Positions 12,748-62,141 of a DNA stretch of 64,000 nucleotides are shown here, in pieces. Numbering within the stretch: the stretch's first letter is position 1; every line of letters starts with the position of its first letter. This stretch comes from Chiloscyllium plagiosum (lineage: Eukaryota). The notes under the pieces are model-generated. The model did not search any database. It was given only the letters and a program-made list of their open reading frames with translations, and was not told the origin of the DNA. Made by a program: the position numbers and the translations under genes. The stretch is taken from NCBI RefSeq assembly GCF_004010195.1, contig NC_057739.1:44535734-44599733 (forward strand), written 5' to 3'.

Positions 12748-12966
12748 GACAGGCAGGGGGCTGAAAGAACACCGTTAAGCCAGACAGCATCAGGAGGTGG
12801 ACAAGTCGACGTTTTGGGTGTAACCCTTCTTCAGGACTCCACCCCCAGTCCTGAAGAAGGGTTGCACCCGAAAAGTCGACTTCACCCTGATGCTGCCTGG
12901 CTTGCTGTGTTCTTCCAGCCTCCTGCCTGTCTACTTTGATTCCAGCATCTGCAGTGTTTTTGTTTC
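12748..12966. mobile_element. Inverted-repeat element with a hammerhead core in each arm (family A variant)
   Basis: Arms ~12748-12840 and ~12846-12931; core agtc-CTGAAGA-A-GGGT-tgc-ACCC-GAAA-ag-TC-gact at 12847-12881; imperfect TSD tgtct(a/g)ttgtc. Confidence 0.8.
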
Positions 12967-13053
12967 CTGTCTGTTGTCCCTGCATTGTGCTCCAATTTGT
13001 ACATGGTTAGCTGTACCCTTACCTGCAACCCTAACTTGTTTTCTCTCTCCTAG

Positions 13054-13213
13054 ACGCCTATACCCAGACATGGCATTTTTTCAGCGTCCCACTGATTACC
13101 CGTGCCTTTTGATCATGGACCCTCAGAATGAGTTTGAAACACTTCGCAGGCGGGTAGAGCAGACCACCCTGAAGTCTCAGACTGTTGCGCACAATCGGAG
13201 CGGCGTTACAAAC
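13054..13213 (+). CDS. TBC1D13: TBC1D13 exon 7 (RLYPDMAFFQRPTDYPCLLIMDPQNEFETLRRRVEQTTLKSQTVAHNRSGVTN)
   Basis: cctag acceptor, gtaagg donor; strong similarity to human. Confidence 0.97.
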
Positions 13214-13939
13214 GTAAGGTCCTCATTGTAGGGCAATCCTACTTTTAATAACCAAATAGCAACAATTTGCCTGTCTCCCTCCTCCCCTATTTGCATGTCT
13301 ATGCTACTGACCTCAGAGGCTCCATGTGAAAGGAAGTTCACTTTCTCACTGATTTCTGGGAAAAAACATTTCCCCTCATTCCCTTTTGGATTAATTGGTG
13401 TCTATTTTATAATTATGCCCCTTCCAAATTTTGGTTTCCTTTTCAGTGAAAGCACTTTGTCCACATCTAATCTGTCTTAACTTTTAAAGCCTTTGGGTTA
13501 TCCCGCCACCTTTAATGGAGACAAAACAAGGCTTAACCTGTTTAGTGCCCTTGTTAATTATACCTTCTTAGTATTTATATCAAACTCGTAAATCTTTTTG
13601 CCTCTTCATCGGTATTTCTGTAACCATTTTAGTCATATGGAGGTCAGAACTTTTCCAAGTGCTTTCTAGTGTGGTCTAACTAAAGTTTTACAAAGTTTAA
13701 CATAACTTCTGAGCTTTTGTAATCCCTCTGGAAAACAATCAAAGTGCTAAATTTCTTTTTATTGCCCAATGTATTTGTGTTCCTACCTAGTTTCTTGTGT
13801 ATCTATATCCCCAGATCCCTCCACTCATTTCATTGGCCTCTGGATTATTAGTCCAATGATATTCCCATATCACCACTTGATATAACTTCATTCACATTAA
13901 CACAGAAAACAGAATGTAAAACAGAACTATATTCTTACA

Positions 13940-14151
13940 CTGAAAAATGTGTTGCTGGAAAAGCGCAGCAGGTCAGGCAACATCCAAGGAGCAGGAGAAT
14001 CGACGTTTCGGGCATAAGCCCTTCTTCAGGAAGAAGAGCTTATGCCCGAAACTTCGATTCTCTTGCTCCTTGGATGCTGCCTGACCTGCTGCGCTTTTCC
14101 AGCAACACATTTTTCAGCTCTGATCTCCAGCATCTGAGTCCTCACTTTCTC
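13940..14151. mobile_element. Family A near-perfect palindromic element (~88 bp arms plus ~35 nt tail)
   Basis: 17 bp direct repeat ctatattcttacactga at 13927-13943 and 14152-14168; hammerhead core on - strand at 14001-14030. Confidence 0.85.
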
Positions 14152-14345
14152 CTATATTCTTACACTGAGCATTAAGTCTGATTTAAAATTGTAATTCCAA
14201 CTATCTGATGGGAGCTACACTGCTGTTGTCAAATTTTGTTACAGTTACTTTCAGGGGATCTCCCATTCTGCACTCTCCTACCATAGCTTTTATTCCATTT
14301 TCCCCCCTGTTGCTGATTCCCTCCCCATCTCCTTTCTTTGAACAG

Positions 14346-14547
14346 GTTTCCTCCCCTCGCAAGACAACCTCGGCTAATGAGTACGAAGTGCTTCCCAATG
14401 GTTGTGAGGCTCACTGGGAGGTGGTTGAAAGAATCCTTTTCATCTACGCCAAGCTGAACCCAGGAATTGCTTATGTTCAGGGCATGAATGAGATTGTGGG
14501 GCCGGTTTATTATACCTTTGCAACAGACCCTAACACTGACTGGAAAG
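14346..14547 (+). CDS. TBC1D13: TBC1D13 exon 8 (VSSPRK...YAKLNPGIAYVQGMNEIVGPVYYTFATDPNTDWK)
   Basis: aacag acceptor, gtgagg donor; YxQGM glutamine-finger motif. Confidence 0.97.
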
Positions 14548-14875
14548 GTGAGGTTCTGTTAAATAACAAAAACGTCTAGCCAGCCAGGGGCCTCACAAGC
14601 TCAGAATGATGACCAATTCTCCTTCATTTCTCGCCTGCCACCTCTTTTTTGCATTCTCCCCATTCCCACATCAGCCTTTCCTTCAATCCCTTCCCCCCCC
14701 TCATATGTTTTTGTAGCTTTCTCCTAGATGCATCTAAACTATTAGTATCTCTCTCTCTCTCTGGTATCACATGGCACCTTTTTGCCACTCTCTGGGTAAA
14801 GATTTTTTTTACTTTAGGGATTATTCATGGTACATTACAGCTCCTTGTTCTTAGCTTCCCCATACCTTCCAACAA

Positions 14876-15125
14876 GACCTGGTTTCGATTCCAACCTTGG
14901 GCAACTGTCAGTGTGGAGTTTGCACATTCTCCCCATGTCTGCGTGGGTTTCCTCCAGGTGCTCCGGTTTCCTCCCACAGTCCAAAGATATGCAGGTTAGG
15001 TGGATTGGCCATGGGAAATATGGGGTTACAGGGATAGGGCAGGGGCGTGGGTCTGGCTAGGATGCTGTTCAGAAGGTTGCTGTGGACTCGATGGGCTAAA
15101 TGGTCTGCTTCCACACTGTAGGGGT
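14876..15125 (+). mobile_element. 5'-truncated HE1-like V-SINE
   Basis: B-box remnant and V-domain GTGTGGAGTTTGCACATTCTCCCC...GTCCAAAGAT. Confidence 0.85.
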
Positions 15126-15508
15126 TCTCAGACTGTGAAGTTTATTGGTGTGTTTTAGGACACTAAGTATTGCAGACTGTTTGAGTCCAAATCCTGTCCT
15201 CATTGGCATGCCCACATTGATGTTGTCCTTATCAGGGTATCCCTGGATCACCGCCATCAGCAGCCCCAACTCCTACACCAACTATGGCCGCTAAGGTCAA
15301 TTCATCTTAGCCCCGAATGAAAGTTACAATCCATTACAGTCTGTGTCTGTATTCCCACTCCAGGAAGGGATTACATAAATAGTTTTCCAATCCTTTGACA
15401 AGTTGAACTGCGCTTAATATTATCCAGTAGTTTTTGTTTCATTGAGAAATTTTAAGGGGGAGAAAGTGCTTCGTTTTTAATATTTGTTTCTTTTCATGAA
15501 CTGTCCAG

Positions 15509-15672
15509 AACATGCAGAGGCAGACACGTTTTTCTGTTTCACAAACCTGATGTCAGAAATCAGGGACAATTTCATAAAGAGCCTGGATGACTCTCAGTGC
15601 GGGATCAGTTATAAAATGGAGAAGGTTTATTCAACGCTGAAGGAGAAAGACATGGATCTTTACCTCAAACTG
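15509..15672 (+). CDS. TBC1D13: TBC1D13 exon 9 (EHAEADTFFCFTNLMSEIRDNFIKSLDDSQCGISYKMEKVYSTLKEKDMDLYLKL)
   Basis: tccag acceptor, gtaaga donor. Confidence 0.97.
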
Positions 15673-16909
15673 GTAAGAAATTGTGCAATGAGAGAGGAGT
15701 GAAATCTGGGGAGTCCCATTCAATCATCACCCCTTAAGCTCGCTGACTCACACATGCTACTGACTGTCACATCTTTATAATTATATAATTTTTTTAAAAA
15801 TCTCCATCGTTTTGGTCTTCCCTGTCTCCATAATCTCCTCCAATTCTGGCCCAATATTAACAGTGCTCTCTTTGATGATTATACCTTCAGTTATTTTGCC
15901 CAGAACTCTGTAATTCTTTCCCTTAACTCCGTCTGTCCACCTGCTTCCTGAAATGTATATCTTTGGCCAAATTTCATAATGCTTCATGTAGCTCAGTCAA
16001 ATTTTGTTTGATATTCCTCTGAAGTAGCTTGGAAATGTTTTACTATGCTAATAGGGCTACATAATGCAGGTCATTCTGCAAAGGGACCAAAAAGGGGAGA
16101 CACCAATTTGTTGAGGGTTACTACAAACTGAATGTGAGCTCAAGCTTAGAAAAGAGAAGGGTCCTTGTGACACAATGCCCTACCTCTGAGCCAGAGGCCT
16201 GGGTTCAGGTTCCACCTGTTTTGGAAGTGAGTAATACCATCTCTGTGCAGGTTGGTTAGAAAATATCTTAAAAAAAAAAAAGATGCCTTTACTCAGTTAA
16301 CTATGCAGGGCTGGTTCGGATATAAAATTGGCTATTTGGAGAGCTGAATGAACATTTGAGGGAGTGAATGATTGAAGGCATCTGCTTTTCTATGCTAAAA
16401 CAATTCAATAAGTACTTTACTGACTTGAAAATGTTTTTCATGACATCTACTGTTTTGTGAAAATTGCTATATAAATGCAATTCTTCTTTAAGTTTCTAGG
16501 GTCACAATATCTGAGCTAGAAATAGCTGCCACGGAGCTCAGAGTGTTTATAGCTGCAACGTCCCTTTATGAACACTTTTTTTTTAAAATGTGCATAGCCT
16601 AACCAAAGTTTTTGATTTCAAGTTCTAATCCCTTTTCCCACAAAAGTTAGTGACAATCCCTGAAGATTAAACAGTTTGTGATTTTTCCTGGTCACCAGAT
16701 TAAGCACAAATACCGAATCCGCCCAAATACCCAAGACATGTAAACAGAATAATATGGCCATCATTGGACGTGATCCTGCTAATCAGCTTTTTATTAATTA
16801 ATCCAGACTGTGCTGAGAGCTTCACCAGAAACCAATTTGAGATCATCACTGCACCTTGTGGTGCAATGCAGTTGTGTACGCTAGAATCTACAATGTTTTA
16901 GACCCTGTT

Positions 16910-17012
16910 TTATGGATGTAAGTCTGCTGGTTGAGTTGGAACCTTCCAGCTCAGTGACCAAACTTACATCCAGAACCTCAACCTGAGCTACAAATCTTCT
17001 CAAAACTCGCTA
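16910..17012 (+). mobile_element. Penelope-like 3' terminus with a short inverted arm
   Basis: acctgagctacaaatcttctcaaaact resembles the tail at 52586-52620 (reverse complement); upstream part matches 21885-21915. Confidence 0.6.
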
Positions 17013-17523
17013 ACCCTGTTTAATGTCGATGAAAGGAATTTAGATATACATTGCACCTTTTTTAATTGGAGCAAAAAGATATTATGAGACTGCCAATCCC
17101 TGTTGCATTCCCATGGCAACACCCTGACCATTCAGAGTCTATTCACCTGGTCTGCAGTTAGCTGTTCCTGCTGCATCTTTATGCCAGTGATGGCTCAACC
17201 AGTCAGTACACTCTTCTGATGTTGTGCATGCTTTGTCCCATTTTCCAAATCCATTTCTTGCATAAGTGTTAGATATAGAGCTTCAACCTGTTTCTCCTCC
17301 TATTGATGTTATGTTGCTAAATAAATCTAAGGGCCAAGGCAATAGAAGGATATCTCAATACTGTTGGGTTTAAGTAAAATTGGAAGAAGCTTGTCTTGAA
17401 CATAAACATCAGACTGGCCCAAACAACCTGTTGCTGCTATACCATGAAATGAGTATTGTTTTATGATGAATAATTCAGCTGAGTGTCTTGTGCTGATGAG
17501 GGTCTGTACATTTTATGCTTCAG

Positions 17524-17684
17524 CAAGAGCAGAACATCAAGCCACAGTTTTTCGCCTTCCGTTGGCTCACGTTATTATTGTCACAAGAGTTCCTCCTCCC
17601 AGACGTCATTCGAATATGGGATTCCCTCTTTTCAGACATCCACAGGTTCGATTTCCTCATCCTGGTCTGCTGCGCTATGCTGAT
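17524..17684 (+). CDS. TBC1D13: TBC1D13 exon 10 (QEQNIKPQFFAFRWLTLLLSQEFLLPDVIRIWDSLFSDIHRFDFLILVCCAML)
   Basis: ttcag acceptor, gtaagt donor. Confidence 0.97.
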
Positions 17685-21275: not shown

Positions 21276-21627
21276 CCACTTACTGGCACTGTCTGGGGCC
21301 GGATTCTCAGGTGAGGATGCTGCCTCTGAGCTGGAAGCTTACTTCACTGCTTTAGTGCAGAGGGCGTGAGCTATGCCAGCACAAAGACCCGCCACTTTTT
21401 TTTGTTAAAGAGTTTAATGTGCTGCTACAGCTGACATTCCAGAATTTGAAGGCAGAGTTTCCGGTCCTCTGCAAAGGCTCAAATTAGCCTGCGGAGGGAG
21501 TTTCTACGCATGGAAGAAACCTGCTCCTTCTAGTCTGGAGACCGTAAGGGAAATCCTCACCTGTTTTTATATTGCTGTTCCCCAGGCTTTGGGAACAGAG
21601 TGAACTGTTGATGAGTTTTGACATACA

Positions 21628-21915
21628 CGAGAATTCCTAGAAGCAAGGCATTCCAACCAGAAAGCTATAAACAAACGCATTGACTTGGATTCCATTTACC
21701 AACCCCTGAGAAAAAGAACAGGAAATGAGATCACTATATGAAATGATGTTACCACAGGAAATGACACCACCAATCCAAGGAAACCCAAACATATAAATAG
21801 AAAGCGGGCTACACCACCAGTGCTTCATCCGGAGGCTCACTGAAGATGCTACCTAGTATGGTGACGAAACATCTGAGAATGAACGTTCCAGCTCAGTGAG
21901 CAAATCTACATCCAG
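21628..21915 (+). mobile_element. Penelope-like element 3' fragment with hammerhead core
   Basis: Translates as REFLEARHSNQKAINKRIDLDSIYQPL, similar to REFLEAWHS at the 52817-53077 ORF end; core ctca-CTGAAGA-T...GGTGAC-GAAA-ca-TC-tgag at 21836-21877. Confidence 0.8.
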
Positions 21916-22249
21916 AGTGAAATGTGTTAATACTCTGTTGGTGCAGAGTGTTTTCACTGTATTGGAGGCAGATTCAATGGTAACTTTCAAATGGACTAAT
22001 TGACTCTACCACCTCAGCCCTGCTGATGAGGTGTTTGCTTCTGGTTACCTCATTTACCATTACCAGACTGCCCCTTGTCTGTAGCTAGTACAGCAGGACT
22101 TCCTTCAAGAGGCCAAAACATTATATGGGGGAAGTCCAAGGACTGTACCACTTTTCACAGATATACCAATTTCTGTGCAGGGATGGTCGTGCTAGTAACC
22201 TCCTTCCCACCCCCCCAAACAAAATTGCTTGATTTGATTGATTTTTGTC

Positions 22250-23880: not shown

Positions 23881-26575
23881 CTAGAGAGCAATACCATATT
23901 TTTTGGTCTTGCCACATTACCAGATTCCTTTCTCCTCAGTAACATTCTAGCCTGCACCCTCTCCAAGGCCTTGACGTTGTCTCCAGTTCCTGAAGCTTTC
24001 AGAACAACATTCCAGCTGATGTCCAAGGTGGTGATTTGGTAAACGTTGAGCAGATCTTTCTTGATTTTGCACACTGTCTGTTTATAAAGCCAAGCGTTTC
24101 TACATGTTTTTAAAACAACTTTATCAACTTTATTAGGTTCTTTTTTTCCTGAGATTCTTACACTCTTGATGCAAATGCAACATGCCAACTTCTGTGAACA
24201 AGAAAAATTTATTAAGCACAGTACAAACCAAGCTTTGGAGAACCCCTCTTTGCCATGCTTGCAAGGTGTGTCCAGGGAAGCGCTCTGAACAAAAGAAATA
24301 GACCTTCCTTTATGCAAAATCTTTGTCACAGTCAGTAATGTTCACAAGACAACCCCCAGTCACTCCCTCACAGTCACATGTCACTCAAGACAATACAGTG
24401 ACCACATCACCTCCACAAACAATGTAATGTAAATCATCCCTTACTGGCCAGATCTGGTGTGAATTGTATTTTTTTAACTGTAGGGAATAGTCAAATTCCA
24501 ACTGTAATGTTCTTATCCCTTTCTGAATAGGGGATGAAAATGTAAATAGGCTTTTGAATGGCATGGAAATGACCACGTAAATGGTTCTGAATAATAGGAG
24601 ATGTCAATGTAATTTCTTGCAATCTATCTGTACGTCAGAGGCATCCCACCCTAGCTTTGGGACATCCAATTTCCTAAAGGTCAGCAGAGCCAGTTAACTC
24701 TTTAATATCACAACTTGGTCTGTTGCTTTTGGAAATTTGTTTGAGATGCTGGGGTTGCTTTTCCTCCTTCTCCCCTTCCTAGAAGAATTTAAGAAAAGGA
24801 ATATGTTGATATTTTGTTTGAAGGAGCACCAGGTGTTTGTTTTTTTTTTGCAAGATTGGAGAGAGGGTGTAGTCTGCAATGTAAGAGTCATTGGAATTGC
24901 TAAATGTGAAAGAGCAAGGTTTATCTTTATCGCATTCTGCCCTCCTGCTAGCAACTTGGATTGCTAATGGATTACTGACTAATCATGTTAATCTTATTCA
25001 AACATTTCATTTGAAAAATTAATTCAGATTCTCACAATGCCATTGTGTGACTTGAATGTGTTTTCTGGCTTATTAATCCAGGCCTCTGAATTACTGATTC
25101 GAAAGTGCACTAATAAATCGCAAAGGTTTAATGCGTGCATGTGCCGAATGGTCTTGCTTTGGTGTGTAAAATGACAGTTAATTTCAGTGAGTGGCTGTGC
25201 AAACCAGTGAATTCCAGGATTTATTTCCTGGTTATGGTGATTTAGCTGTTAGTCAGGATGTGACAGAGGCTTCTGAGCTCCTGGGGGCAAGCTGTTTGAT
25301 AGCATTCTCTATTTTCTGGCTGTCTGAGCTCCACGGTCTTTCTCCCACCAAGTGTAACAGTTGAACCAATTGTGGATGAACATGAAATGGTTGGTATCTT
25401 TCCTCTGTGTCACGTGGCATCATCTCTTTAATTCCTGTTTAGTTGTGTTCCTTTTCGCCATTTCAAAAGTGATTCAGTGAAGTAGTATTCTACAATAATA
25501 CAACTGCAGCTGGCGTTTGTTTTAAATCCATAAACGTCTAGAAATGTCATTTGCTTGGGTGCAGTAGAAGATGGAGCTCTCCAAGGTCCTGCTGTAAACC
25601 TGGCTCACTGAAGCATTTGCTTTTGTCTTTGTTTACTGATGAAAATTGTTTTGTCTTGAGTAACTTCAGTATTGATGTAGGTGTAAAAAGGTTGGAAATT
25701 TCTGCCACTGGATATGAGTGGTGACTGAATTTCCATCTCTCTTTTCTGGAGAGCTTTAGGGCCAATGAAATTGCTAGTTGTGTAGTACTGCTGGCAAAGT
25801 AGTGACCAAAGTTCAAAATTACCAGTACCAGACTGTAGATTTGTACTTTAATTATAGGCAAGATAACTAGCCCACTGCATTTGTCAGACACTGGAGAAAT
25901 CCAGCATTGATAGCAGCATCTATGGAGAGGAATAGTTAACATTTTAAAGTCTGATGTGATTCTTCTTCAGCATTGACACAGATGCAGTCAAACCTGCTGA
26001 GTATTTCCAACATTCTAGCATCCACTGTATTTTGCTGTGGTTCAACTTTTGGATGATTGACAAAGTAGCAGTTGATCATAAATGAGAGGTAATCGATAGC
26101 CAGAAGGCTCTAAAGAGTGTGAGGGGCTCAAGAGACCCGGAGATGCATGTGCTTAATGTTTGAAAATGATGAGACAATATTGAGTGGAAATACCAAGCCT
26201 GTGGACTCCTGGACTTCCATAAATGGAGCTACTGAGAACAAACGTAAGGAGATTCTGTTGAACCTTCATTAAAATCCTGGTTAGGCTGCTTCTAGAATAT
26301 TGCTTCCAGTTCCAGTCACCACAGTTTGACAAGGAAGTCAGACATACACAAGAGATGTGCCGAATGGTCCCAGAAATGAGGGATTTTAGCTTTGAGGTTA
26401 GGTTGAAGAAGTTAGTGTTCTTTGGAGGAAAGGAGGGTTAGACAAGACCTAATGAGGGGTGTGCAAGGTTATAATGGCTTAGATAAGGTCGGTAAAAGCT
26501 GTTCCCATTAGTTTATAGTGCAAGGACTAGGTATCACAGATTCAAGGATTTTGTTAAAGGGAAATGAAAAAGATG

Positions 26576-28180
26576 AGAGATGGTGTCTTGAAAAATGTCC
26601 ATACTACAGAGGAGGAAGTGCTGCTTGTCGTGAAACACATAAAAGTGGATAAATCCCCAGAACCTGATCAGATGGAACCTAGATCTCTGTGGGAAGCTAG
26701 GGAAGTGATTGCTGGGCCTCTTGCTGAGATATTTGTACCATCGATAGTCACGGGTGAGGTGCCGGAAGACTGGAGGTTGGCAAACATGGTGCCACTGTTT
26801 AAGAAGGGCGGTAAGGACGAGCCAGAGAACTATAGACCAGTGAGCCAAACCTCAGTGATGGGCAAGTTGGTGGAGGGAATCCTGAGGGACAAAATGTATA
26901 TGTATTTGGAAAGGCAAGGACTGATTAGGGATAGTCAACATGGCTTTGTGTGGGAAATCATGTCTCACAAACTTGATTGAGTTTTTTGAAGAAGTAGCAA
27001 AGAGGATTGAGGGCAAAACGGTGGACGTGATCTATATGGACTTCAGTAAGGCATTTGACAAGGTTCCCCATGGGAGATTGGTTAGCAAGGTTAGATCTCA
27101 CTGAATACAGGGAGAAGTAGCCATTTGGATACAGAACTGGCTCAAAGGTAGAAGACAGAGGGTGGTGGTGGAGGATTGTTTTTCACATTGGAGGCCCGTG
27201 ACCAGTGGAGTGCTACAACGATCAGTCCTGGGTCCACTACTTTTCATCATTTATATAAATGATTTGGATGTGAGCATAAGAGGGATAGTTAGTAAGTTTG
27301 CAGATGACACCAAAATTGGAGGTGTAGTGGACAGCGAAGAAGGTTACCTCGGATTACAACAGGATCTTGACCAAATGGGCCAATGGGCTGAGGAGTGGCA
27401 GATAGAGTTTAATTCAGATAAATGCGAGGTGCTATATTTTGGGAAAGCAAATCTTAGCAGGACGTATACATTTAATGGTAAGGTCCTAGGGAGTGTTGCT
27501 GAACAAAGAGACCTTGGAGTGCAGGTTCATAACTCCTTGAAAGTGGAGTCGCAGGTAGATAGGATAGTGAAGGCGGCGTTTGGTATGCTTTCCTTTATTG
27601 GTCAGAGTATTGAGTACAGGAGTTGGGAGGTCATGTTGCGGCTGTATAGGACATTGGTTAGGCCACTGTTGAAATAGTGCATGCAATTCTGGTCTCCTTC
27701 CTATTGGAAAGATGTTGTGAAACTTGAAAGTTTTTCAAGAATGTTGCCAGTGTTGGAAGATTTGAGCTATGGGGAGAGGTTGAATAGGCTAGGGCTGTTT
27801 TCACTGGAGTATTGGAGGCTGAGGGATGACCTTATAGAGGGGCATGGATAGGATAAATAGACAAAATCTTTTCCCTGGGGCGGGTGAGTCCAGAACTAGA
27901 GGGCATAGGTTTAGGGTGAGAGGGGAAAGATATAAAAGAGACCTAAGGGACAACATTTTCACCCAGAGAGTGGTGCGTGTATGGAATGAGCTGCCAGAGG
28001 AAGTGGTGGAAGCTGGTACAATTGCAACATTTAAAAGGCATCTGGATGGGTATATGAATAGGAAGGGTTTGGAGGGATATGGGCCGGGTGCTGGCAGGTG
28101 GGACTAGATTGGGTTGGGATATCTGGTCGGCGTGGATGAGTTGGACAGAAGGGTCTGTTTCCGTTCTGTACATCTCTATG
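26576..28180 (+). mobile_element. 5'-truncated CR1/HER1-like LINE (~1.6 kb, RT domain) with stops and frameshifts
   Basis: KSPEPD, PEDWRLANMVPLFKKG, NYRPVS, DFSKAFDKVPH, KFADDTK motifs. Confidence 0.95.
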
Positions 28181-28756: not shown

Positions 28757-28960
28757 AACAAAACAGAAATTGCTGGAAAAGCTCAGCAGGTCTGGCAGCA
28801 TCTTGGAGAGAAATCAGAGTTAACATTTCAGGGTCCTGTGACCCTTCCTCAGAACTGTTAACTCTGATTTCCCTCCACAGATGCTGCCAGACCTGCTGAG
28901 CTTTTTCAGCAATTTGTTTTGTTTGATTTCCAGAATCCGCAGGTCTTTCGGTTTTTATTT
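28757..28960. mobile_element. Family B inverted-repeat element with a hammerhead-like core on the - strand
   Basis: Arms ~28757-28826 and ~28856-28924 plus ~36 nt tail; reverse-complement core agtt-CTGAGGA-A-GGGTC-acag-GACCC-t-GAAA-tg-TT-aact. Confidence 0.75.
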
Positions 28961-33769: not shown

Positions 33770-35421
33770 TGTCATTGAGTTGTAAAGATGTACAGCACGG
33801 AAACAGACCCTTCGGTCCAACCCATCCATGCTGACCAGATATCCCAACGCAGTCTAGTCCCACCTGCCAGCACCCGGCCCAGGTGAAGTCTAGTCCCACC
33901 TGCCAGCACCTGGCCCATATCCCTCCAAAGTCTTCCTATTCATATACTCATCCAAATGTCTCTTAAATGTTGCAATTGTACTAGCCTCCACCACTTCCTC
34001 TGGCAGCTCATTCCATATCTGTACCACTCTCTGCGTGAAAAAGTTGCCCCTTAGGTCTCTCTTCTATCTTTACCCTCTCACCCTAAACCTATGCCCTCTA
34101 GTTGTGAGCTCCCCAATCCCAGGTAAAAGACTTTGCCTATTTACCCGATCCATGCCCCTCATAAGAAGGTTACCTCAGATTACAACAGGATCTTGACCAA
34201 ATGGGCCAATGGGCTGAGGAGTGGCAGATGGAGTTTAATTCAGATAAATGCGAGGTGCTACATTTTGGGAAAGGAAATCTTAGCAGGACGTATACACTTA
34301 ATGGTAAGGTCCTAGGGAGTATAGCTGAACAAAGAGAGTTTGGAGTGCAGGTACATAGCTCCTTGAAAGTGGACCTCTATAAGGTCACCCCTCAGCCTCC
34401 GACACTTCAGGGAAAATAGCCCCAGCCTGTTCAGCCTCTCCCTGTAGCTCAAATCCTCCAACCCTAGCAGCATCCTTGTAAATCTTTTCTGAATCCTTTT
34501 CAAGTTTCACAACATCTTTCCGATAGGAAGGAGACCAGAATTGCATGCACTATTCCAACAGTGGCCTAACCAAAGTCATGTACAGCTGCAACATGACCTC
34601 CCAACTCCTGTACTCAATACTCTGATCAATAAAGGAAAGCATACCAAATGCTGCCTTCACTATCCTATCTACCTGCGACTCCACTTTCAAGGAGCTATGT
34701 ACCTGCACTCCAAACTCTCTTTGTTCAGCTACACTCCCTAGGACCTTACCATTAAGTGTATACGTCTTGCTAAGATTTCCTTTCCCAAAATGTAGCACCT
34801 CGCATTTATCTGAATTAAACTCCATCTGCCACTCCTCAGCCCATTGGCCCATTTGGTCAAGATCCTGTTGTAATCTGAGGTAACCTTCTTCACTGTCCAT
34901 GACACCTCCAATTTTGGTGTCATCTGCAAACTTACCAACTGTACCTCTTATGCTCGCATCCAAATCATTTATGTGAATAACAAAATGTAGAGGGCCCAGC
35001 ACCGATCCTTGTGGCACTCCACTGGTCACAGTCCTCCAGTCTGGAAAAACAACCCTCCACCACCACCCTCTGTCTTCTACCTTTGAGCCAGTTCTGTATC
35101 CAAATGGCTAGTTCTCCCTGTGTTCCATGAGATCTGACCTTGCCATGAGATCTGACCCAGTCTCCCAAGGGGAACCTTGTCAAATGCCTTACTGAAGTCC
35201 ATATAGATCATATCTACCGCTCTGCCCTCATCAATCATCTTTGTTACTTCTTCAAAAAACTCAATCAAGTTTGTGAGACATGATTTCCCACACACAAAGC
35301 CATGTTGACTATCCTTAATCAGTCCTTGCCTTTCCAAATACACGTACATCCTGTCCCTCAGTATTCTCTCCAACATCTTGTCCACCACCGAGGTCAGGCT
35401 CACTGGTCTATAGTTCCCTGG
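33770..35421 (-). mobile_element. 5'-truncated CR1/HER1-like LINE with an internal inverted duplication
   Basis: PGNYRPVSLTS, QHGFVCGKSCLTNL, SGVPQGSVLGP, KFADDTK; inverted copy at 34163-34373. Confidence 0.95.
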
Positions 35422-36265
35422 CTGTTGTGTTGGCTGCAGTGTATTAGCAGGGATAGAGAATGGGCTAACCAGTAGAAATCTAGGGGTAAAAGGGGGCATT
35501 TTCAGCCTGAGGGGGCCTTAGTGCCAGGGTCAATGTTCCCTCTAAACAACACCCACATGTAGCTGATGTGATGTTCCACGCTCTGTGTCAGCACATGGAT
35601 TTTGGTAGTGACTTCCAGCTCCAGAAGTTGCTGCTACACATGGACTTCAGAGACCTGTACAGCCAATAGGAATTTTAGATGGAATTCTTGCTGGAGCCAC
35701 AATAATTATAATGAATGTTAATGAGCTTGTTGATGGAAGTGAATGGTCGTAACCAAATTTGCATATGACACAAATGGGTGGGAAGACACGTGGTGAGGAT
35801 GATGCACAGTCTCTGAGGCAGGTTAACTCAGTGGGTACAAACTTGGTAAATGGGATATAATGTGGGCAAGGTGAAGTTACGCACTTGGTAGGAAGGATAG
35901 AAGCAGCTGAATATTATTTAAGTGGACAAAGACTGCAGAAAGTTGCGGCATAGTGGGATTTGAGAGTCATTGTGTGTCAATCACTGAAATGTAGCATCAA
36001 CATTCAGTGTATAATAGGGAAGGCAAGTGGATTCTAGGCTTTTATTTCAAAGGGAATGGTGTATAACTGGGTCACCACTCAGTCAAAGCAGAGATGAGGA
36101 GGGATTAGTTCTGAGGGTAGTGAATCTGTGGAATTCTTTACTGCTAGGTTGTTTAAGTATATTCAAGGCTGAGAGATTATTAATCAGTAAAGGAATTGAA
36201 GTTGTGGGGTAAGGGCAGGAAAGTGGAGTTGAAGATTATGAGATCAGCCATGAAACTGGTGAAAC

Positions 36266-36616
36266 TCATTTCCCCTCCCCCCACCTTACCTCAGTTCTAA
36301 CCTTCCAGCTCAGCACCATCCTCATGACCTGTCCTACCTGTCAATCTCCCTTCCCACCTATCCATTTCACCCTCCTCTCTGACCTATCACCCCCATTTAC
36401 CTATTGTACTCTTTGCTACCTTCTCCCCAGGACCCCCCCCCCCCTCCCCATTTATCTCACCACCCTGGAGGCTCCCTGCCTCTATTCCTGATGAAGGGCT
36501 TTTGCCCGAAACGTCGATTTTCCTGCTCCTCAGATGCTGCCTGACCTGCTGTGTTTTTCCAGCACCACTCTGATCTAAACTCTGGTTACCAGCATTTGCA
36601 GTCCTCACTTTTGCCT
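36266..36616 (+). mobile_element. Longest family A copy: pyrimidine-rich 3' region, hammerhead core and tail
   Basis: Core CTGATGA-A-GGGC-tttt-GCCC-GAAA-CG-TC at 36488-36515; tail gcatttgcagtcctcacttttgcc. Confidence 0.8.
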
Positions 36617-44880: not shown

Positions 44881-45089
44881 CTAATTGTTTTTACTCATCT
44901 GTTTCCTATGTTTGTCATCTTGAGCTGAGCTTCTGACAGTTGTTGACAAATCAATCGACTTCCACCAATATCCTTCCCTCAGTTCATCTCTTAAACATCT
45001 CTGTTTCTTTTTAGATTTATCTGCTGTAAATCTCTCCCTGTTGCCCTGCATTTTACAGTCCTCCATAAACTTGTGCTTGTTCAAAACTC

Positions 45090-45220
45090 GAGGAGAAAGT
45101 GAGGGCTGCAGATGCTGGAGATCAGAGCTGAAAATGTGTTGCTGGAAAAGCGCAGCAGGTCAGGCAGCATCCAAGGAACAGGAGAATCGACGTTTCGGGC
45201 ATAAACCCTTCTTCAGGAAG
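45090..45220 (-). mobile_element. Family A terminal fragment with hammerhead core
   Basis: Core at 45188-45217 (- strand); TSD ttcaaaactc at 45080-45089 and 45227-45236. Confidence 0.8.
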
Positions 45221-50277: not shown

Positions 50278-50465
50278 ATACACCAGATTATTGTCCAACA
50301 GATTTATTTGAAATCACAAGCTCTCAGAGTGCTGCCCCTTGATAAACCACTTCACCTGATGAAGGAGCAGTGCTCTGAAAGCTTGTGATTTTAAAATAAA
50401 TCTGTCGGGACTACAACCCTTGAGGTGTGACTTCTGACCTTGTCCACCTCAGTCCAACCACCTCT
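50278..50465. mobile_element. Family C inverted-repeat element with hammerhead core
   Basis: cac-CTGATGA-A-GGAGC-agt-GCTCT-GAAA-GC-TT-gtg at 50353-50387. Confidence 0.75.
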
Positions 50466-52585: not shown

Positions 52586-53790
52586 AAGTTTGTGAAAAGA
52601 TTTGTAGCTCGGGTGCTCGTTGTTGTTCTGTTTGCCGAGCTGGGAATTTGTGTTGCAGACGTTTCGTCCCCTGTCTAGGTGACATCCTCAGTGCTTGGGA
52701 GCCTCCTGTGAAGCGCTTCTGTGATCTTTCCTCCGGCATTTGTAGTGGTTTGAATCTGCCGCTTCCGGTTGTCAGTTCCAGCTGTCCGTTGCAGTGGCCA
52801 GTATATTGGGTCCAGGTCAATCTGTGGATGAGTGCCATGCCTCTAGGAATTCCCTGGCTATTCTCTGTTTGGCTTGTCCTATAATAGTAGTGTTGTCCCA
52901 GTCAAATTCATGTTGCTTCTCATCTGTGTGTGTGGCTACTAAGGATAGCTGATTGTGTTGTTTCGTGGCTAGTTGGTGTTCATGGATGCGGATCGTTAGC
53001 TGTCTTCCTGTTTGTCCTATGTAGTGTTTTGTGCCGTCCTTGCATGGGATGTTGTACACTACATTGGTTTTGCTCATGCTGGGTATCGGGTCCTTCGTTC
53101 TGGTGAGTTGTTGTCTGAGAGTGGCAATTTCATCAACAGATGCCTAAGGGAAAGACAACGGAACGAGGACATGCCACAACCCAAAGGACTAGCCACACTA
53201 CCATACATCAAGAGCATTTCCGAACTGACAGCCAGATTACTGCGACCACTAGGACTCATAACAGCACACAAACCAACGGCCACTCTCAGACAACAACTCA
53301 CCAGGATGAAGGACCCGACACCCAGCATGAGTGTATAGTGTACAAAATCCCATGCAAGGACTGCACAAAACACTACATAGGACAAACAGGAAGACAGCTA
53401 ATGATCCGCATCCATGAACACCAACTAGCCACGAAACGACACGACCAGCTATCCTTAGTAGCCACACACACAGATGACAAGCAACATGAATTCGACTGGG
53501 ACAACACTACTATTATAGGACAAGCCAAACAACAAGGGAATTCCTATAGGCATGGCACTCATCCACAGATTCAATCCATAAGCACATCGATCTGGACCCA
53601 ATATACCGACCACTGCAACGGACAGCTGGAACTGACAACCGGGGAAGCGGCAGATTCAAACCACTATAAATGCCGGAGGAAAGATCACAGAAGCGCTTTA
53701 CAGGAGGTTCCTAAGCACTGAGGATGTCACCTAGACAGGGGATAAAACGTCTGCAACACAAATTCCCAGCTCGGCGAACAGAACCACAAC
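52586..53790. mobile_element. Penelope-like retroelement, inverted tail-out structure: - arm 52586-53125, + arm 53126-53790; GIY-YIG endonuclease remnant
   Basis: VVYNIPCKD...HYIGQTGRQLTIRIHEH in both arms; 14 bp TSD agcacagcagttcc at 52572-52585 and 53791-53804. Confidence 0.92.
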
Positions 53791-53817
53791 AGCACAGCAG
53801 TTCCTTCAAGCAAAAGC

Positions 53818-54224
53818 TAAAAATCACACAACATTAGGTTATAGTCCAACAGGTTTATTTGGAAGCACTAGCTTTCGGAGCACTGCTCCTTCATCAGGTC
53901 GTTGTGGAGTATAAGATCAACTTAAAGTTTATTTAAGAATGTAACTTTTAAATGTTCTGTGATTTACATATGAAAGAACTGAAACCAACATGTTCATTCT
54001 AAAAGATGAGAGACTTAACAAACAATCCAGGTCTTTTTCAATATATAATTTCAGTTACATCACACTGTAAACTTTTGCTATAAATTCTGTGTTGTACAAT
54101 CTTATTCTCCACAACCACCTAGCATTCCAAAAACTAGTGCTTCCAAATAAACCTGTTGGACTATAACCTGGTGTTGTGTGATTTTTAACTGTACATCCCA
54201 GTCCAACACCGACGCCTCTAAATC
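53818..54224. mobile_element. Family C inverted-repeat element
   Basis: Arms aaaatcacacaac...gtccaacaggtttatttggaagcactag and its reverse complement; hammerhead core at 53866-53900 (- strand). Confidence 0.8.
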
Positions 54225-57100: not shown

Positions 57101-57231
57101 TGTTTTTGGCTTCATGTTATGGTAGAATGATATCCTATTTTTATACTGTAAGGCAATGTATGTCCATAAATCATGTTTCCTTCAGGACTAATTTGTATTT
57201 ATTTTGCTTTATTTTTGATGATCCCCCGTAG

Positions 57232-57341: not shown

Positions 57342-57689
57342 GTATGACCCATCTATCTGTCGGGTTAAGTAGAAACAGTGACTAAAATACAGCTTTAATT
57401 CAGACGATTTCAACACACATCTTCATATGGCTGAGAAATGAAGCTGTTTCTTTGGGCTACACGGGCTGGGTAAGTCCCAGTGTCATTTGTTGGTTTATCC
57501 TGCGTTAGCTGATCACAGGCAGAGCAGCACATTGCTCCATCGCCTAAGGAAGATTTTCTTTAAAAAGTAAGTTAGCAGGAGCCATTGCAGCAGAGATTCA
57601 CCCATTCATAATGGGACACAGCCACGTTCTTTTGCAATCATAACACAAAAAGCTGTTTCAACACCTACAGCAAGAGCAGGCAGTTAGAA

Positions 57690-58195
57690 ACAAGGGAGAC
57701 ATGAATGAAGATTTCCAAGAATAGGGTGACAAGGCTAAGAAGTCTTGCTCCAGTTGTACAGGGACCACACCTGGTGTTCTGAGTACAATTTGATCTCCAT
57801 ATTTCAGAAAGGATATACTGGTGTTGGAAGCATTGAGGACACAGCTCACTAGGTTAGTGCCTGGGATGCGAACGGTGAGGGGTGTGTACAATTGAGGTGG
57901 GGAATAATCTCAGGATAAGGGGTTGATCATTTAACACAGAGATGAGGAGCAATGTCATCTCTCAGAGTGTGGTGAATCCTTAGAATGCTCCACCTAACAG
58001 CAAGATGCATGCTCCATCACTGAATACATTTAGGGTTGGGATAGACAGATTTTCAGTGTTTCAGGGAATCGAGGGATAAGGGCACTTTTGGGAAACTGGA
58101 GTTGAGGCAGCAGGTCGGCCATAATTATGCTGAATGTCAGGACACATTCAAGGGGCTGAATGGCCATAACTTGATCCTGTTTCTCATGTTCTTAT
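57690..58195 (+). mobile_element. Old CR1 3' fragment
   Basis: Decayed QFxSPY...RVVN motifs and CR1-type 3' UTR. Confidence 0.65.
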
Positions 58196-58204
58196 AAAAA
58201 ATGT

Positions 58205-58655
58205 CTTCTTGTAAATTTATTCCCGGATGTGGACATCACTGACTAGGCCACCATTTAATGCCCATCCCAGTTGCCCTGTTGAGAATCAACCACATCTCTG
58301 TAATGTGGAGTCACATATAGACCAGAGCAGAGATGGAAATGTGTTGCTGGAAAAGCGCAGCAGGTCAGGCAGCATCTAGGGAACAGGAGAATTGACGTTT
58401 CGGGCATTAGCCCTTCTTCAGGAATCCAGAGCAGGTAAGGACAGCAGTTTCCTTCCCAATGGATATAGTAAACCAGATGGAATTTTTCCAATAATTGACA
58501 ATAGTTTCAAGGTCATCATTAGGCTCTTCATTCCCATTTTTTATTGAACTTAAATTCCATTATCTGCCATGGTGGGATTTGAACCCAGGTTCTCAGAACT
58601 TTACCTTGGTGTCTGGATTAATAGTCTAGTGATAATACCACTACCATTGCCTCCC
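58205..58655 (-). mobile_element. tRNA-type SINE interrupted by a family A fragment (58331-58425)
   Basis: TSD ccagagcag at 58322-58330 and 58426-58434; core at 58394-58422 (- strand). Confidence 0.75.
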
Positions 58656-58731
58656 TGGCTCTCCTCAGGATGTGAAGAATGCTTTAAGAATTAAAGTTAT
58701 TTTAAAATTGGCATTTATTTTTTTTAAATAG

Positions 58732-59014
58732 GTTGGAACCGGATGGGAAGGTTTACGTGAAGTATGAGGTCATAGGGAAGAATCATGTTGCAGTGCCAAC
58801 ACACATTTTCAAAGTGGTGATACTGGAGAAGCACAGCGGAGAAATCGAATTGCAGTCATACGTGATGCCCAATCAGCCAGTGCAGGAGAACATCCCCCTC
58901 GAACGCTTCCTGGTGCCAATTGAAAGCATCGAGCGGGCATCGGGGGTGCTCTTTGTCAGTAATATTCTAAAAAGAACCAATAATCTAAAGACCATAACTG
59001 CTGGTAGTAAGTAA
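58732..59014 (+). CDS. ENDOG: ENDOG exon 3 (LEPDGKVYVKYEVIGKNHVAVPTH...IERASGVLFVSNILKRTNNLKTITAGSK*)
   Basis: aatag acceptor, TAA stop; total CDS 885 nt = 294 aa; ITAGSK C-terminus as in human. Confidence 0.96.
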
Positions 59015-60869
59015 CAGCACTTTGAACTGTGACTTAGTTCTGAATTGTTCAGGGGAAGAGTGTAAATCTGTTGTTGCTCAGTGAGATGCTCAAAATTGTT
59101 TTTTCCTAATTCCTTTGAATGTTTTTCAGCATTAAATATCCCCATAGACATATGATGTAATATATGTGTGATATATATTACATCCACCTTCGCTAATTCA
59201 CATTCATTTTTGAATAATTGAATGCTTTTCATTCCCAATGTATTATGGGAATGAACTATTATCAGAATATGTTAAGATTTCTCCTTAAAGTAACTTCAGG
59301 CTATCTTGCTGCAGCTTCGACAAAACAGAAAGCTCTGATTTTTAAAAAATTTGTATGTGAGATGTGGGTATCATTGGGATAAGACTGGCTTTAGTTTTCA
59401 TCCCTCATTAACAAGTTGGTGGGGGTTTACCTTGCCTGACTCCTGCAGTCAACACACGGTGTGTTTGCTGCTGTTTCCTACAACAAAGGCAAGTTCCAGA
59501 ATTTTGATCAAGGATGAGGATGAGGAACCTATTTTTTAAGTTAGGGTGATGTGTGATTGGAAATGTCCCTGTCTTCAAGTTACTGGAGGTTGTAAAAGCC
59601 TTGGCAAGTGGATGTGCACTATCAGGACGTGATGGCCAAAAGCAAAGGATTTCATCTGAAGGACGCATGTCTTGCTAGTGCTACCTTCCCCGAAGTGGAG
59701 AAAAGTCTCATCTGGCTCTCTGATTCCAGTTTCAGATCTTTGATGCAACTGAAATGAACTATGTTCCACAGGATCTTGATTGATGGTATCAGCACAGCCT
59801 ATTTACTGTTAATGTCTCATTGCCTGGGTTTGAACTATGAGACAATTATCACCATCCACACCCACTCAGTAAGAATGCAGTTCCTGTGGATCATGGGCAG
59901 GACACGAGTTTACATCAGGTGTCTTGCTACAGTGCTACGTTTGGAGAAAATACATGTGACAAATTCTCAAACTAACTTTTCTGTGGAATGGGGACATGAT
60001 AATGTTTGTAACAAACTTCTAACTTAATATTGGTTCTGGGTAAGCCAAATTGAATTTGGCAATATTTTAAGATTGTACTTAAGTAATGCACTTTCTGTAT
60101 GTTAATGGGGCAGGATCATAGGACACAGAATTTATGGTAAAAGATCAATGTATCATACAACTGATGCGATGTGTTGAACAAACCTAGATTGCTGTTAAGT
60201 CTTTAATCACTTAGAATGGGGTTGCAGGCTTTGATTGATTAATATGTAAATCCTGGAACTTCTTGGATGATCTCTCAGCTCATCTGGTTCTTATTTCCAA
60301 AGTAGGAATTTTTAAAACGTTACATAGACTGACTGCCGATAGATTGTGTGCATTTTGAACAAAATAGAATGTATCTGCAGATTTGTTTAACCTGGTGTTG
60401 TGTGATTTTTAAATTTGTCTACCCCAGTCCAACACTGGAACCTCCACATCATGTGTATTAATGGTTTATCCATCAGACTCGATCAAAATTGAAACTTAGC
60501 ATAATGTATTAAAAACAAAATAGTGGAAACACTCAACAGGTCTGGTAGTTTTTGTAGAGAGTTATCATTTCAGGTCAGTAATCTTTCATCAGAACAATGA
60601 TCAGGTGTCAAACAATAGAAGGATTCAGAGGATGGTCGAAAAGATTGATTTTGGAAGCTTTAAATGAAAACATGCAGAGCTAGCAACAAAGGGAACTTTG
60701 TAATCCATTAGTCATTGAGTCTTCTTGCTGCTGGTCAACCTACTGAAGGTAAATACACTGAAATCTTGTTGAGAAAAATATTTTACGTTTTGAAAGTATA
60801 TTTTACAAAAGATTGTTAATTATGATGTAAAATCCCCAGCATCATTACTGTTTATTTTAGTATTTATAA

Positions 60870-60875
60870 AATAAA
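60870..60875 (+). terminator. Candidate ENDOG polyadenylation signal AATAAA (alternative ATTAAA at 59131)
   Basis: Motif in AT-rich context about 600 bp before the next start codon. Confidence 0.45.
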
Positions 60876-61044
60876 CAAAGTTTAATCATAAATGTGTAAC
60901 TCTATCATTTTGCCTTGTGAAGCATCGTCCGTGAGTGTAAATATTTTAACTTGAACTCCATGAAGGCACTTATGGGTGATATACCAGAATATGCTTTATT
61001 CAAAGAATAATCTGCAATTTTAAAACAATTGCGTTGTATTTACT

Positions 61045-61350
61045 GGGATGCAGGGAAAGGGGTATTTGCTGGGCAGACCCAGGTGGGTGGATTTGCTGAG
61101 ACACTTGGAGAGGAAGTTATTTACAGGATCTCAGGGAGATGGGTATTTATAGGGAGGGGATTTTCCAGGGATAGGGTATTACAAAGAGGGGGTATTTGGG
61201 GTGTTTATAGAGGGAGGGGTTTTTTACAGGGAGGATGCTTTTTGGGGGTATATATAGAGNNNNNNNNNNNNNNTGGTATTTTGATAGGTCTATAGAGGGA
61301 GGGGGGTAATTAGGGGGATGGGGTTATTTATGGGAGGGGGTTTTCCAGGG
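61045..61350. repeat. Degenerate G-rich tandem repeat (~20 bp, GGGTATTTATAGGGAGGGG-like) containing an assembly gap (N at 61260-61273)
   Basis: Direct reading. Confidence 0.8.
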
Positions 61351-61351
61351 A

Positions 61352-61472
61352 CAGCGCCACCAGCTGGTTCCAAATGTTACAGCGGATGGACCAATAGGAG
61401 CGGAGCTTGTGGCTCTCGCCCAGCGGCCAATTGGAGCGGCCGTTACTGTGAGGTGGTGCGGCCAACATGGCG
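61352..61472 (+). promoter_or_regulatory. TATA-less CpG promoter: CTCF-like motif (61352-61367), CCAAT boxes (61391, 61427), YY1-like AACATGGCG overlapping the ATG
   Basis: cagcgccaccagctgg, ccaat, ccaattgg, caacatggcgg. Confidence 0.65.
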
Positions 61473-61502
61473 GAGAGGGAGAATGTGTGGACAGAGCGGA
61501 AG
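61467..61502 (+). CDS. SPOUT1: First coding exon (MAERENVWTERK) of the next gene, probably SPOUT1/C9orf114
   Basis: Strong Kozak gccaacATGG, AAG|gtgagt donor, CpG island; MAER start and TBC1D13-ENDOG-SPOUT1 neighbourhood recalled from human; only 12 aa are visible. Confidence 0.55.
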
Positions 61503-61730
61503 GTGAGTGCGGCCGAGAACCTGGGGCTCTCTCCCCTCCCCCCCTCCCCCCTCAGTCGGTCCGGGCTACAGGGAGAAGCTGTTTCCTTTCCGTCTCCCTC
61601 TCCCGGGGCCGGGATCACCCTGAAGCTGCTTTCCGAGAGAGTTTGATCCAGCGGCGCCTTGAGGGCAGCAGTGAGCCGGGGGGAGTGAGGGGGTGCTCAC
61701 ATTGAGATATTCAGTAATACTCTGCTCAGA

Positions 61731-61926
61731 GGTTAAAAAAACCACACAGCACCAGGTTATAGTCCAACAGGTTTATTTGGAAACACCATCCTTCGGAGTG
61801 CTGCCAGGTCGTCAACCACCTGAAGGAGCAGCGCTTCCAAATAAACCTGTTGGACTATAACCTGGTGTTGTGTCTTTTTTTTTAGACTTTGTCCACCTCA
61901 GTCCAACACTGGCACCTCCACATCAT
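61731..61926. mobile_element. Family C inverted-repeat element
   Basis: caccaggttatagtccaacaggtttatttggaa and its reverse complement, plus ~38 nt tail. Confidence 0.8.
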
Positions 61927-61993
61927 GTTCAGAGATTGTATTGCATCTTGAAGCTGGACCCCCTGGCTCAGAGGTAGGGACATTACCACTAGA

Positions 61994-62141
61994 TTCTGGA
62001 TCAATGCCTTTATTCCTGATGATGGGCTTTTGCCCGAAACGTTGATTTTGCTGAAGCTCCTCGGATGCTGCCTGAATTGCTGTGCTCTTCCAGCACCATT
62101 GATCCAGAATCTGGTTTCCAGCATCTGCAGTCATTGTTTTT
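61994..62141 (+). mobile_element. Family A element with hammerhead core and a 16 bp inverted arm
   Basis: TSD acattaccactaga at 61980-61993 and 62142-62155; core CTGATGA-T-GGGC-tttt-GCCC-GAAA-CG-TT from 62016. Confidence 0.8.

Follow-up and report, generated by a model that had tools for sequence, protein, structure and literature searches.

The 11 hammerhead motifs that we analyzed are real minimal hammerheads of a known kind, located in the ends of Penelope-like elements (PLEs) in a 64,000-nt sequence (the window) from the shark Chiloscyllium plagiosum (GCF_004010195.1, NC_057739.1, positions 44,535,734-44,599,733 of the forward strand). The ribozymes themselves are not new, in that the minimal hammerheads (min-HHR) of PLEs are already known. 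Our preferred reading, to which we assign a probability of roughly 0.68, is that these are the pseudo-LTR hammerheads of protein-coding PLEs and that, in the putatively Neptune-type elements, the ribozyme lies at the capped front of the element RNA, with most short copies being run-off cDNAs of uncut RNA and with only a minority of transcripts being cut. The question addressed is whether animal PLE hammerheads of this weak, minimal form cleave in vivo and, if so, for what purpose. In a genome that contains several hundred thousand copies, junction statistics can serve as a test: they yield a predicted start placed exactly at A-4, a cut placed exactly at +27/+28, a pair of priming sites and, in U6, a natural reporter of 5′-OH ends (positions are numbered with the C of CTGA as 0).

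All of the cores listed in a preliminary description of this DNA are present, at 12847-12881, 21836-21877, 36488-36515, 50353-50387 and 62016-62043 on the plus strand, and at 14001-14030, 28818-28858, 45188-45217, 52657-52694, 53866-53900 and 58394-58422 on the minus strand. At each of the 11 sites, CTGANGA and a single additional base are followed by a paired stem II, then GAAA, two nucleotides, T and H; the helix II pair G10.1-C11.1 is expected, and position 11.1 is T in two decayed copies among the 11. A strict descriptor gave 9 matches in the window versus a mean of 0.01 in 100 dinucleotide shuffles, no match in the reversed window, and 63 matches in 800 kb from 16 other contigs versus 0 in each of five shuffles. 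A covariance model trained on 15 examples, three of which are window sites, gave 26 window matches at E ≤ 1, including 10 of the 11 sites and approximately 14 further, mostly decayed, copies; the site that it misses, 53866, belongs to family D, which is not among the training examples. Our Rfam scan of the window identified no hammerhead family at E ≤ 1 and only chance microRNA-like hairpin matches, as is expected for forms without loop 3.

Our analysis also bears out the earlier proposal that helices I and II covary between families. Using eight family-level majority motifs, we counted paired cells: 21 of 24 at positions 1-3 of helix I, for which shuffles average 11.7, and 30 of 32 in helix II, for which they average 19.4; neither score was reached by any of 20,000 shuffles. 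Taken by itself, the palindrome pair shows no significant covariation (5 of 8, p 0.20). Among 15 real copies, 83.7% of cells pair, versus 59.5% when shuffled and 17-36% with slid partners, a figure that is not a probability since the rows are related; family D was left out of this alignment and of one alignment of the catalytic boxes, which are invariant across the lineages compared. Folding of monomers and dimers did not recover the hammerhead fold and gives it no support. Several details of the preliminary description needed amendment: the repeat families number six lineages (A-F), not five; the palindromic stem III is present in 8 of the 11 sites (majority form ACGT in A, C and E, and AGCT in D) but is lost at 12847, 21836 and 28818; and stem I of family A, given as about 2 bp, does have two pairs, but these are followed by a U·U mismatch and one more A-U pair. 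An origin in Penelope elements, a minimal type I fold and a palindromic helix III that needs a dimer are consistent with both our data and the consensus in the available sections of Cervera and De la Pena 2014 (PMC4209133), where min-HHR share with our motifs the core boxes, the extra base after A9, G10.1-C11.1, a palindromic 15.2-16.2 without loop 3, a short helix I, many consensus families per genome, and mostly single dispersed copies tied to truncated PLEs.

Detailed examination of each locus demonstrated that the motifs lie within inserted element ends. Family A accounts for five: a head-to-head insertion of subfamily A2 (13944..14153; 17-bp target duplication) with a minus arm of -3..+85 holding the intact core 14001-14030 and a plus arm of +2..+125; an A1 3′ UTR (36265..36616, plus strand, -235..+128) with an intact hammerhead at 36483-36520, and with relatives that extend upstream into GIY-YIG and reverse transcriptase (RT) coding sequence; a solo A2 copy (45087..45219, minus strand, -3..+129) with the intact core 45188-45217; a second solo A2 copy (58324..58426, minus strand) whose first base is exactly A(-4), preceded by a G that is also the last base of its 9-bp target duplication, and in which the first helix I pair of the core at 58394 is lost; and a solo A3 copy (61994..62143, plus strand, -22..+124) with a hammerhead at 62011-62048 and a 14-bp target duplication. 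Lineage B is represented by a head-to-head insertion (12750..12966) with a plus-strand hammerhead at 12846-12882, where the palindrome is lost, and an inverted minus-strand partner at 12803-12839, where G12 is lost, and family C by a head-to-head insertion (28760..28954) with a minus arm of -5..+92, containing a decayed hammerhead at 28817-28857, and a plus arm of +27..+130. Family D occurs as a head-to-head insertion (50280..50462; plus-strand hammerhead 50351-50389) and as an inverted insertion (53813..54202) with the minus-strand hammerhead 53866-53900 on an arm of -22..+84. The family E (putatively Penelope/Poseidon-type) inverted insertion (52586..53791) contains GIY-YIG coding remnants on both arms, an intact minus-strand hammerhead at 52653-52696, a plus-strand one at 53713-53756 with G12 lost, an approximately 37-nt tail on one arm and a 14-bp target duplication. 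Lineage F (Poseidon-like; 21586..21916, plus strand) consists of a putative GIY-YIG C-terminus remnant, judged by eye against family E, a 3′ UTR and a hammerhead at 21835-21878 with a decayed palindrome. The hallmarks of EN+ PLEs are present, i.e., a 30-40 nt tail at one end, an inverted 5′-truncated partner, partial tandems and target duplications. Family A has two preferred 3′ ends, at approximately +88 and +125, and 50 of 66 inverted arms pair a short with a long end, with one long-long and no short-short pair.

The 5′ ends carry the main argument. In family A, 84 of 171 copies start within -13..+8 (3.8 per base), whereas the density is 0.29 per base immediately upstream and 1.3-1.4 immediately downstream, and the start site is an initiator-like A at the 5′ edge of the ribozyme; a check for hidden upstream subfamilies flagged only two among the matches listed. 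Copies bearing an open reading frame (ORF) behave likewise, with 10 of 29 distinct loci starting at -8..+8 and none at +28. The putatively Poseidon-type families E and F have no 5′ pile-up at the ribozyme edge (2 of 15). The base before the start, for which G is expected in 27%, was G in 65, A in 18 and T in 17 of 100 A2 copies counted by hand among the matches listed; the same hand count of 100 among the matches listed gave G 64, A 20 and T 16 in family D, and G 45, A 25 and T 30 in family C. Among 100 A1/A3 copies from the matches listed, the G excess is weak (G 21, A 16, C 63), and the unique-flank family C loci have none (G 3, A 6, T 6). At the control junction, +28, we counted G 48 and A 52 (Fisher p 0.0015). 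Among 30 A2 loci, 15 solo and 15 inverted, the G is present in 11 of each kind. An extra G derived from the cap is found at L1 5′ junctions (PMC11702581), and starts at the 5′ edge with a non-native G are as expected from copying of capped, uncut RNA; it is therefore likely, judging from these copy junctions, that the ribozyme lies at the capped front of the element RNA. We considered but did not favor a splice-acceptor origin of the 5′ boundary, as there is no AG at -4 in family A and no shared upstream exon was seen, and family C counts at +34..+55 were discarded as artefacts of self-complementary family A arms.

The best-surviving alternative, which we nevertheless regard as unlikely, is that the 5′ ends are random truncations, with the pile-up caused by stalling or microhomology at the ribozyme edge, and with the G reflecting an endonuclease preference or untemplated addition rather than a cap. 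Such an origin would account for starts smeared over approximately 12 bases (-9..+2; exactly -4 in 13 of 171) and for the eight solo A2 copies whose target duplication ends at the G, so that the G belongs to the target duplication; several targets also continue with AT, giving microhomology, and the anole enzyme is described, in the available part of PMC11167929, as preferring ATT sites. Random truncation does not, however, give a start density that drops more than tenfold upstream of -13, and enrichment of the G is seen neither among other starts (25 of 91) nor at +28; it does appear at a shifted position (-9) in family D. It is also found at arm-to-arm junctions without target DNA: in five inverted junctions (L220, L234, L239, L243 and L268), the G, read by eye, does not continue the sequence of the partner arm, and target preference cannot explain it there.

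With respect to the source of these copies, five of the six lineages (A, C, D, E and F) could be followed back to the 3′ end of protein-coding PLEs, and the same ribozyme variants occur downstream of RT/GIY-YIG coding sequence in each, the link resting on translated homology or Pfam in A, C and E, and on short remnants judged by eye in D and F; for lineage B, we found no ORF-linked copy. No separate non-autonomous family is thus needed, and on sequence grounds the short copies are stubs of coding elements. The earlier wording, "mostly non-coding Penelope derivatives", therefore holds literally, since only 15 of 171 family A copies extend to the ORF, but not as a description of what they derive from. 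Less probable still than random truncation is a non-autonomous family, SINE-like or retrozyme-like, that sustains itself through ribozyme cleavage: the freed RNA, circular or of unit length, would be copied in trans. Such a family is compatible with the fixed ends, the target duplications and the very high number of copies, as well as with the vertebrate tandem retrozymes from pseudo-LTRs, one of them chondrichthyan, in the accessible part of bioRxiv 10.64898/2026.07.22.740005; solo copies retain the initiator-like start and both priming sites, and so some may remobilise. Against it, the copies do not start at the cut, the window contains no tandem array of ribozyme units, and all of the family A variants that we examined have copies that retain the native upstream UTR or ORF. 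The non-LTR retrozymes of that preprint are likewise type I hammerhead units from PLE pseudo-LTRs, but as described there they are defined as tandem arrays, whereas the window copies are solo or head-to-head.

Indirect evidence for cutting comes from fusions to U6. We found U6 joined to the family A pseudo-LTR in 5 of 40 examined copies, all at +28, with the scoring of U6 chimeras covering 48 of very many candidates. These five represent four independent insertions of different subfamily variants, three with a target duplication and two with the same fusion on both inverted arms; all four have their junction precisely at the predicted scissile bond, a position (+28) where only 2 of 171 ordinary family A copies start. 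A U6 fusion to family E (L372) lies approximately 4 bases off the predicted cut. In the available sections of PMC6789731, RtcB is reported to join U6 efficiently only to 5′-OH RNA, and fusion exactly at the predicted bond points to a ribozyme-made 5′-OH end; from this small U6 set, the ribozyme likely cuts in the germ line. We consider it very improbable that the fold persists solely for protein binding or as a promoter element, never cutting in vivo, and that U6 at +28 results from template switching at a structural boundary: the low in vitro activity published for minimal forms (available part of PMC4209133), the core mutants that did not block insertion in vitro (available part of PMC11167929) and a predicted A1 monomer fold that buries the core in another helix would suit it, but the catalytic boxes are invariant and none of the four U6 insertions is at the far commoner -4 end. 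Counts of ordinary junctions are less clear. A2 starts at +28 number 387, versus 156, 155 and 151 at +26, +30 and +32, but five bases of the 5′ end are repeated at +28, which confounds the excess; subfamily D2 has no clear excess at its cut (35 versus 21 at +26). A family D cut-site count of 17,524 was rejected as spoiled by D2; of the other family D junction counts, 73 mixes D1 and D2, and 26 is D1 only. Poly(A) single-cell reads under a related label showed no position where molecules begin or end, and 94-96% of the aligned reads continued into unrelated sequence, so that they report host read-through only.

Under our preferred reading, an initiator-like element would start transcription at A(-4) in families A and C and at A(-8) in D, upstream of an ORF start near +162. 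The element protein would then prime at one of two internal RNA sites and proceed as far as the cap, which would be read as an extra base, and priming of both target strands, one per site, would produce head-to-head pairs. The ribozyme would be unable to close helix III alone, so that cutting would occur only when two RNAs meet or the protein assists; the cut would remove the cap plus 32 nt and leave a 5′-OH that RtcB can ligate to U6, and the ribozyme would likely serve to remove the cap and take the RNA out of use, rather than to produce a template for insertion. We give even odds to the more specific proposal that the hammerhead of the shark's putatively Neptune-type elements is the first 36 bases of a capped mRNA and acts as a dimer- or protein-gated self-decapping switch, with both states recorded in the genome. 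If so, the genome would hold hundreds of thousands of cap-marked run-off copies as well as U6 ligated to cut-made 5′-OH ends, the latter being fossil proof of germ-line cleavage by metazoan minimal hammerheads, and one scheme would cover PLE tails, solo pseudo-LTRs, head-to-head pairs and partial tandems.

A close known system is the Poseidon element PAc of Anolis carolinensis (Frangieh et al. 2024, PMC11167929), which, in the available sections, likewise has two internal RT start sites giving the tail, priming of both strands, a ribozyme near the ORF start, and uncut RNA as the main template. Cleavage in PAc is protein-assisted and not needed for insertion, and those sections report no RNA reads ending at the cut site and no in vivo trace of cleavage, and do not place the transcript start at the ribozyme; unlike PAc, the main shark families are putatively Neptune-type, with an ORF start approximately 160 bases after the core. 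The available part of PMC4209133 contains no in vivo evidence of cutting and proposes cleavage to process the template, whereas the shark copies seem mostly to derive from uncut RNA. U6/LINE-1 chimeric pseudogenes (Moldovan et al. 2019, PMC6789731) similarly join the U6 T-run end to a 5′-truncated retroelement as one insertion unit, but as described there the L1 junctions are variable and need an unknown nuclease, whereas the shark junction has a set position, the predicted ribozyme cut of the element itself. In literature that excluded most subscription journals and Repbase notes, we found no evident account of hammerheads in sharks, and nothing on solo pLTR copies, cap-derived extra G or U6-ribozyme chimeras in Penelope; in the part of the PMC4209133 supplement covered (file 1 excepted), there is no chondrichthyan row, and "shark" and four genus names are absent.

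The Neptune clade, to which families A, C and D putatively belong, is marked by CX2-5CxxC between RT and endonuclease (available part of PMC8557442). We identified this motif, which is common to Neptune and Nematis, by pattern in 2 of 4 family A loci; it is degenerate in one family C copy and was not seen in family D. Families E and F are candidates for the Penelope/Poseidon clade, where GIY-YIG occurs but the linker motif does not; family E has no linker motif in three loci and a GIY-YIG match below the Pfam cut-off, and no solved structure matched the endonuclease region. The preliminary description had placed these among the most abundant short repeats, and a single family A pattern indeed has 49,884 exact matches. 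A rough extrapolation from 81 in 967 kb gives approximately 300,000 intact-looking cores, with such counts being far above the approximately 4,000 of coelacanth and 9,000 of Xenopus in the available sections of PMC4209133, where the descriptors differ.

All 11 minimal type I hammerhead ribozyme cores that the preliminary description had listed were found at their positions in the window (12847 to 62043), and the motif claim was borne out by a strict descriptor, which gave nine matches in the window vs 0.01 in shuffles, and 63 matches in 800 kb from other contigs vs none in shuffles. Clustering of 413 cores, drawn from 1.65 Mb of fetched DNA that was largely pattern-selected, resolved lineages A2, A1/A3, C, D, E and F, together with the small groups B and G. 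The covariation claimed for the stems was also confirmed: in the eight family motifs compared, pairing held for 21 of 24 cells at positions 1-3 of helix I and for 30 of 32 cells of helix II, both above all 20,000 shuffles; in the same test the covariation of the palindrome pair of helix III by itself was not significant. Among 15 real copies, both sides had changed in 8 of the 10 pairs, and paired cells dropped from 84% to 17-36% when partners were slid. The palindrome is gone in 3 of the 11 sites and the first helix I pair in one, and an Rfam search of the window did not detect the minimal hammerhead forms. We regard the 11 motifs as confirmed hammerheads of an already known kind. Absent among these sites are subfamily D2 (~17,500 exact matches, which exceeds the D1 count; loci L104 and L091), which differs from D1 in a 3′ helix I strand two bases longer and in its helix II loop, and lineage G, a further Poseidon-like hammerhead present as a head-to-head pair (L198, 8248-8410).

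The repeats had been described as mostly non-coding Penelope derivatives; the link to Penelope-like elements (PLEs) stands, and the non-coding reading needs correction, since families A, C and D, probably of Neptune type, and families E and F, probably of Penelope/Poseidon type, adjoin coding sequence or its remnants. Relatives of the family A copy at 36265-36616 continue, on the upstream side, into sequence that codes for GIY-YIG and RT with a cysteine linker; the upstream end of A2 is the same as theirs, and the ORF in A2 partial tandems starts near +162 (numbered with the C of CTGA as 0, the predicted family A cut lying between +27 and +28). With the family A RT as query, there were 48,979 first-look candidates, 150 of them scored. 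Upstream of family C copies there is GIY-YIG homology (same strand in 2 of 26), family D has an endonuclease C-terminal remnant and an adjoining inverted RT fragment, and in the window family E lies directly behind a GIY-YIG remnant and family F behind a similar one; the coding parent of lineage B was not traced among the loci examined. Exact pattern matches number 49,884 in family A and 5,172 in D1; a tight pattern for C has 210. The distribution of 3′ ends has two peaks, near +88 and +125 for family A and near +75 and +112 for family E; many arms (66 of 153) have an inverted partner, and window copies are flanked by target duplications of 9-17 bp. These features are published marks of endonuclease-bearing PLEs (PMC8557442, PMC3846280).

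Our census of 5′ starts covered 1.03 Mb that was not pattern-selected and included the window, and, with 14 copies adjoining masked DNA or locus ends dropped, comprised 171 uncensored family A copies. Starts fell in -13 to +8 in 84 of these, 15 reached beyond -300 and two were at +28; the pile-up was weaker in C (25 of ~50 true copies) and D (16 of 54), with hardly any in E and F (2 of 15). Ten of 29 ORF-bearing copies start at the same 5′ site. A second cluster of 5′ boundaries in the ORF-bearing copies (L283-L307), at +88 to +118, comprises insertions beginning with the tail only (~12 of 29). In A, B and C, the A at -4, with which helix I also begins, lies in a context like the initiator consensus, YYANWYY. 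By hand count, the non-native base before it is G in 65 of 100 A2 junctions (the first 100 of 3,867 matches) and 45 of 100 in C (first 100 of 360), and G precedes A(-8), the matching position in D, in 64 of 100 (first 100 of 293), against an expected 27%; the control junction at +28 gave G 48 and A 52. Of 15 solo A2 loci, 8 have a target duplication that ends at the junction G; at five inverted junctions the partner arm does not template the G. Such an extra G is a known cap trace at L1 junctions (PMC11702581). The excess is weak in A1/A3 and absent in 15 unique-flank C loci, and starts are smeared across a dozen bases, which counts against a capped start.

For A2 we counted 387 junctions at +28 that have two non-native letters, as against 156, 155 and 151 at +26, +30 and +32 and ~1,900 at -4; D2 has 35 at its predicted cut vs 21 at +26. 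The A2 excess at +28 is confounded, because the sequence of the putative capped start recurs there for five bases, and is not proof of cutting. Hammerhead cleavage leaves a 5′-OH end. RtcB ligates U6 to 5′-OH RNA (PMC6789731). U6 joins at +28 make the stronger test. We examined 40 of 48 scored U6 matches; the eight omitted were six from a single cluster, an overlapping match and the weakest one. U6 is joined to the family A pseudo-LTR, the element end carrying the ribozyme, in five of these 40, all five at +28, representing four insertions with differing subfamily variants, three of them with target duplications. Two of the four carry the same fusion on both inverted arms, ending near +90 and near +128, and the template was therefore already chimeric. 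Since ~2% of ordinary copies start within one base of +28, the chance of four in four is below one in a million; the -4 end, though commoner, was used by none. One U6-family E junction lies ~4 bases from the predicted family E cut. Fusion of U6 to a tRNA-like SINE or to LINE sequence is seen in many further copies (L358-L397); in two (L364, L385), by eye, the join seems to fall within the part of family A that codes for the endonuclease. We take the 5′ start junctions to point to a probable capped start, and the joins of U6 at +28 to be indirect evidence of probable cleavage in the germ line; in the literature searched, of incomplete coverage, we found no junction evidence for either.

The Neptune-type ribozyme would stand at the front of a capped mRNA, on which the element protein would prime at either of two internal sites and then run to the cap. 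The same priming at two internal sites was shown for an anole element (PMC11167929). In the shark families it would yield solo copies of 92 or 130 bases and head-to-head pairs with one arm short and the other long, a pairing seen in 50 of 66 inverted arms. The scheme would also yield partial tandems, in which, by eye, the new unit starts again at -4 after an ORF piece. Cleavage would need a partner RNA or protein and would strip the cap from a minority of transcripts; its proposed function is that of a decapping switch. Downstream of the ribozyme, A, B and C have a block in common (12889-12919, 14073-14103, 28880-28910, 36533-36563 and others), in which GATGCTG is complementary to CAGCATC at about +105. 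The block brackets the first priming site and may be the protein-binding structure.

The window, from an assembly of 3.56 Gb, contains LINE fragments and exons from two genes, one with a TBC domain and one endonuclease G-like. Two opposed LINE fragments (26558-27840 and 33770-35517) form a 551-bp inverted repeat of 92% identity with arms 6.8 kb apart, and positions 1-465 are a tandem array of ~12 copies of a 37-38 bp unit. The family E insertion (52586-53791) has a family A fragment on one side and a family D insertion on the other, which places three nested PLE families in 1.7 kb of a single intron of the endonuclease G-like gene.
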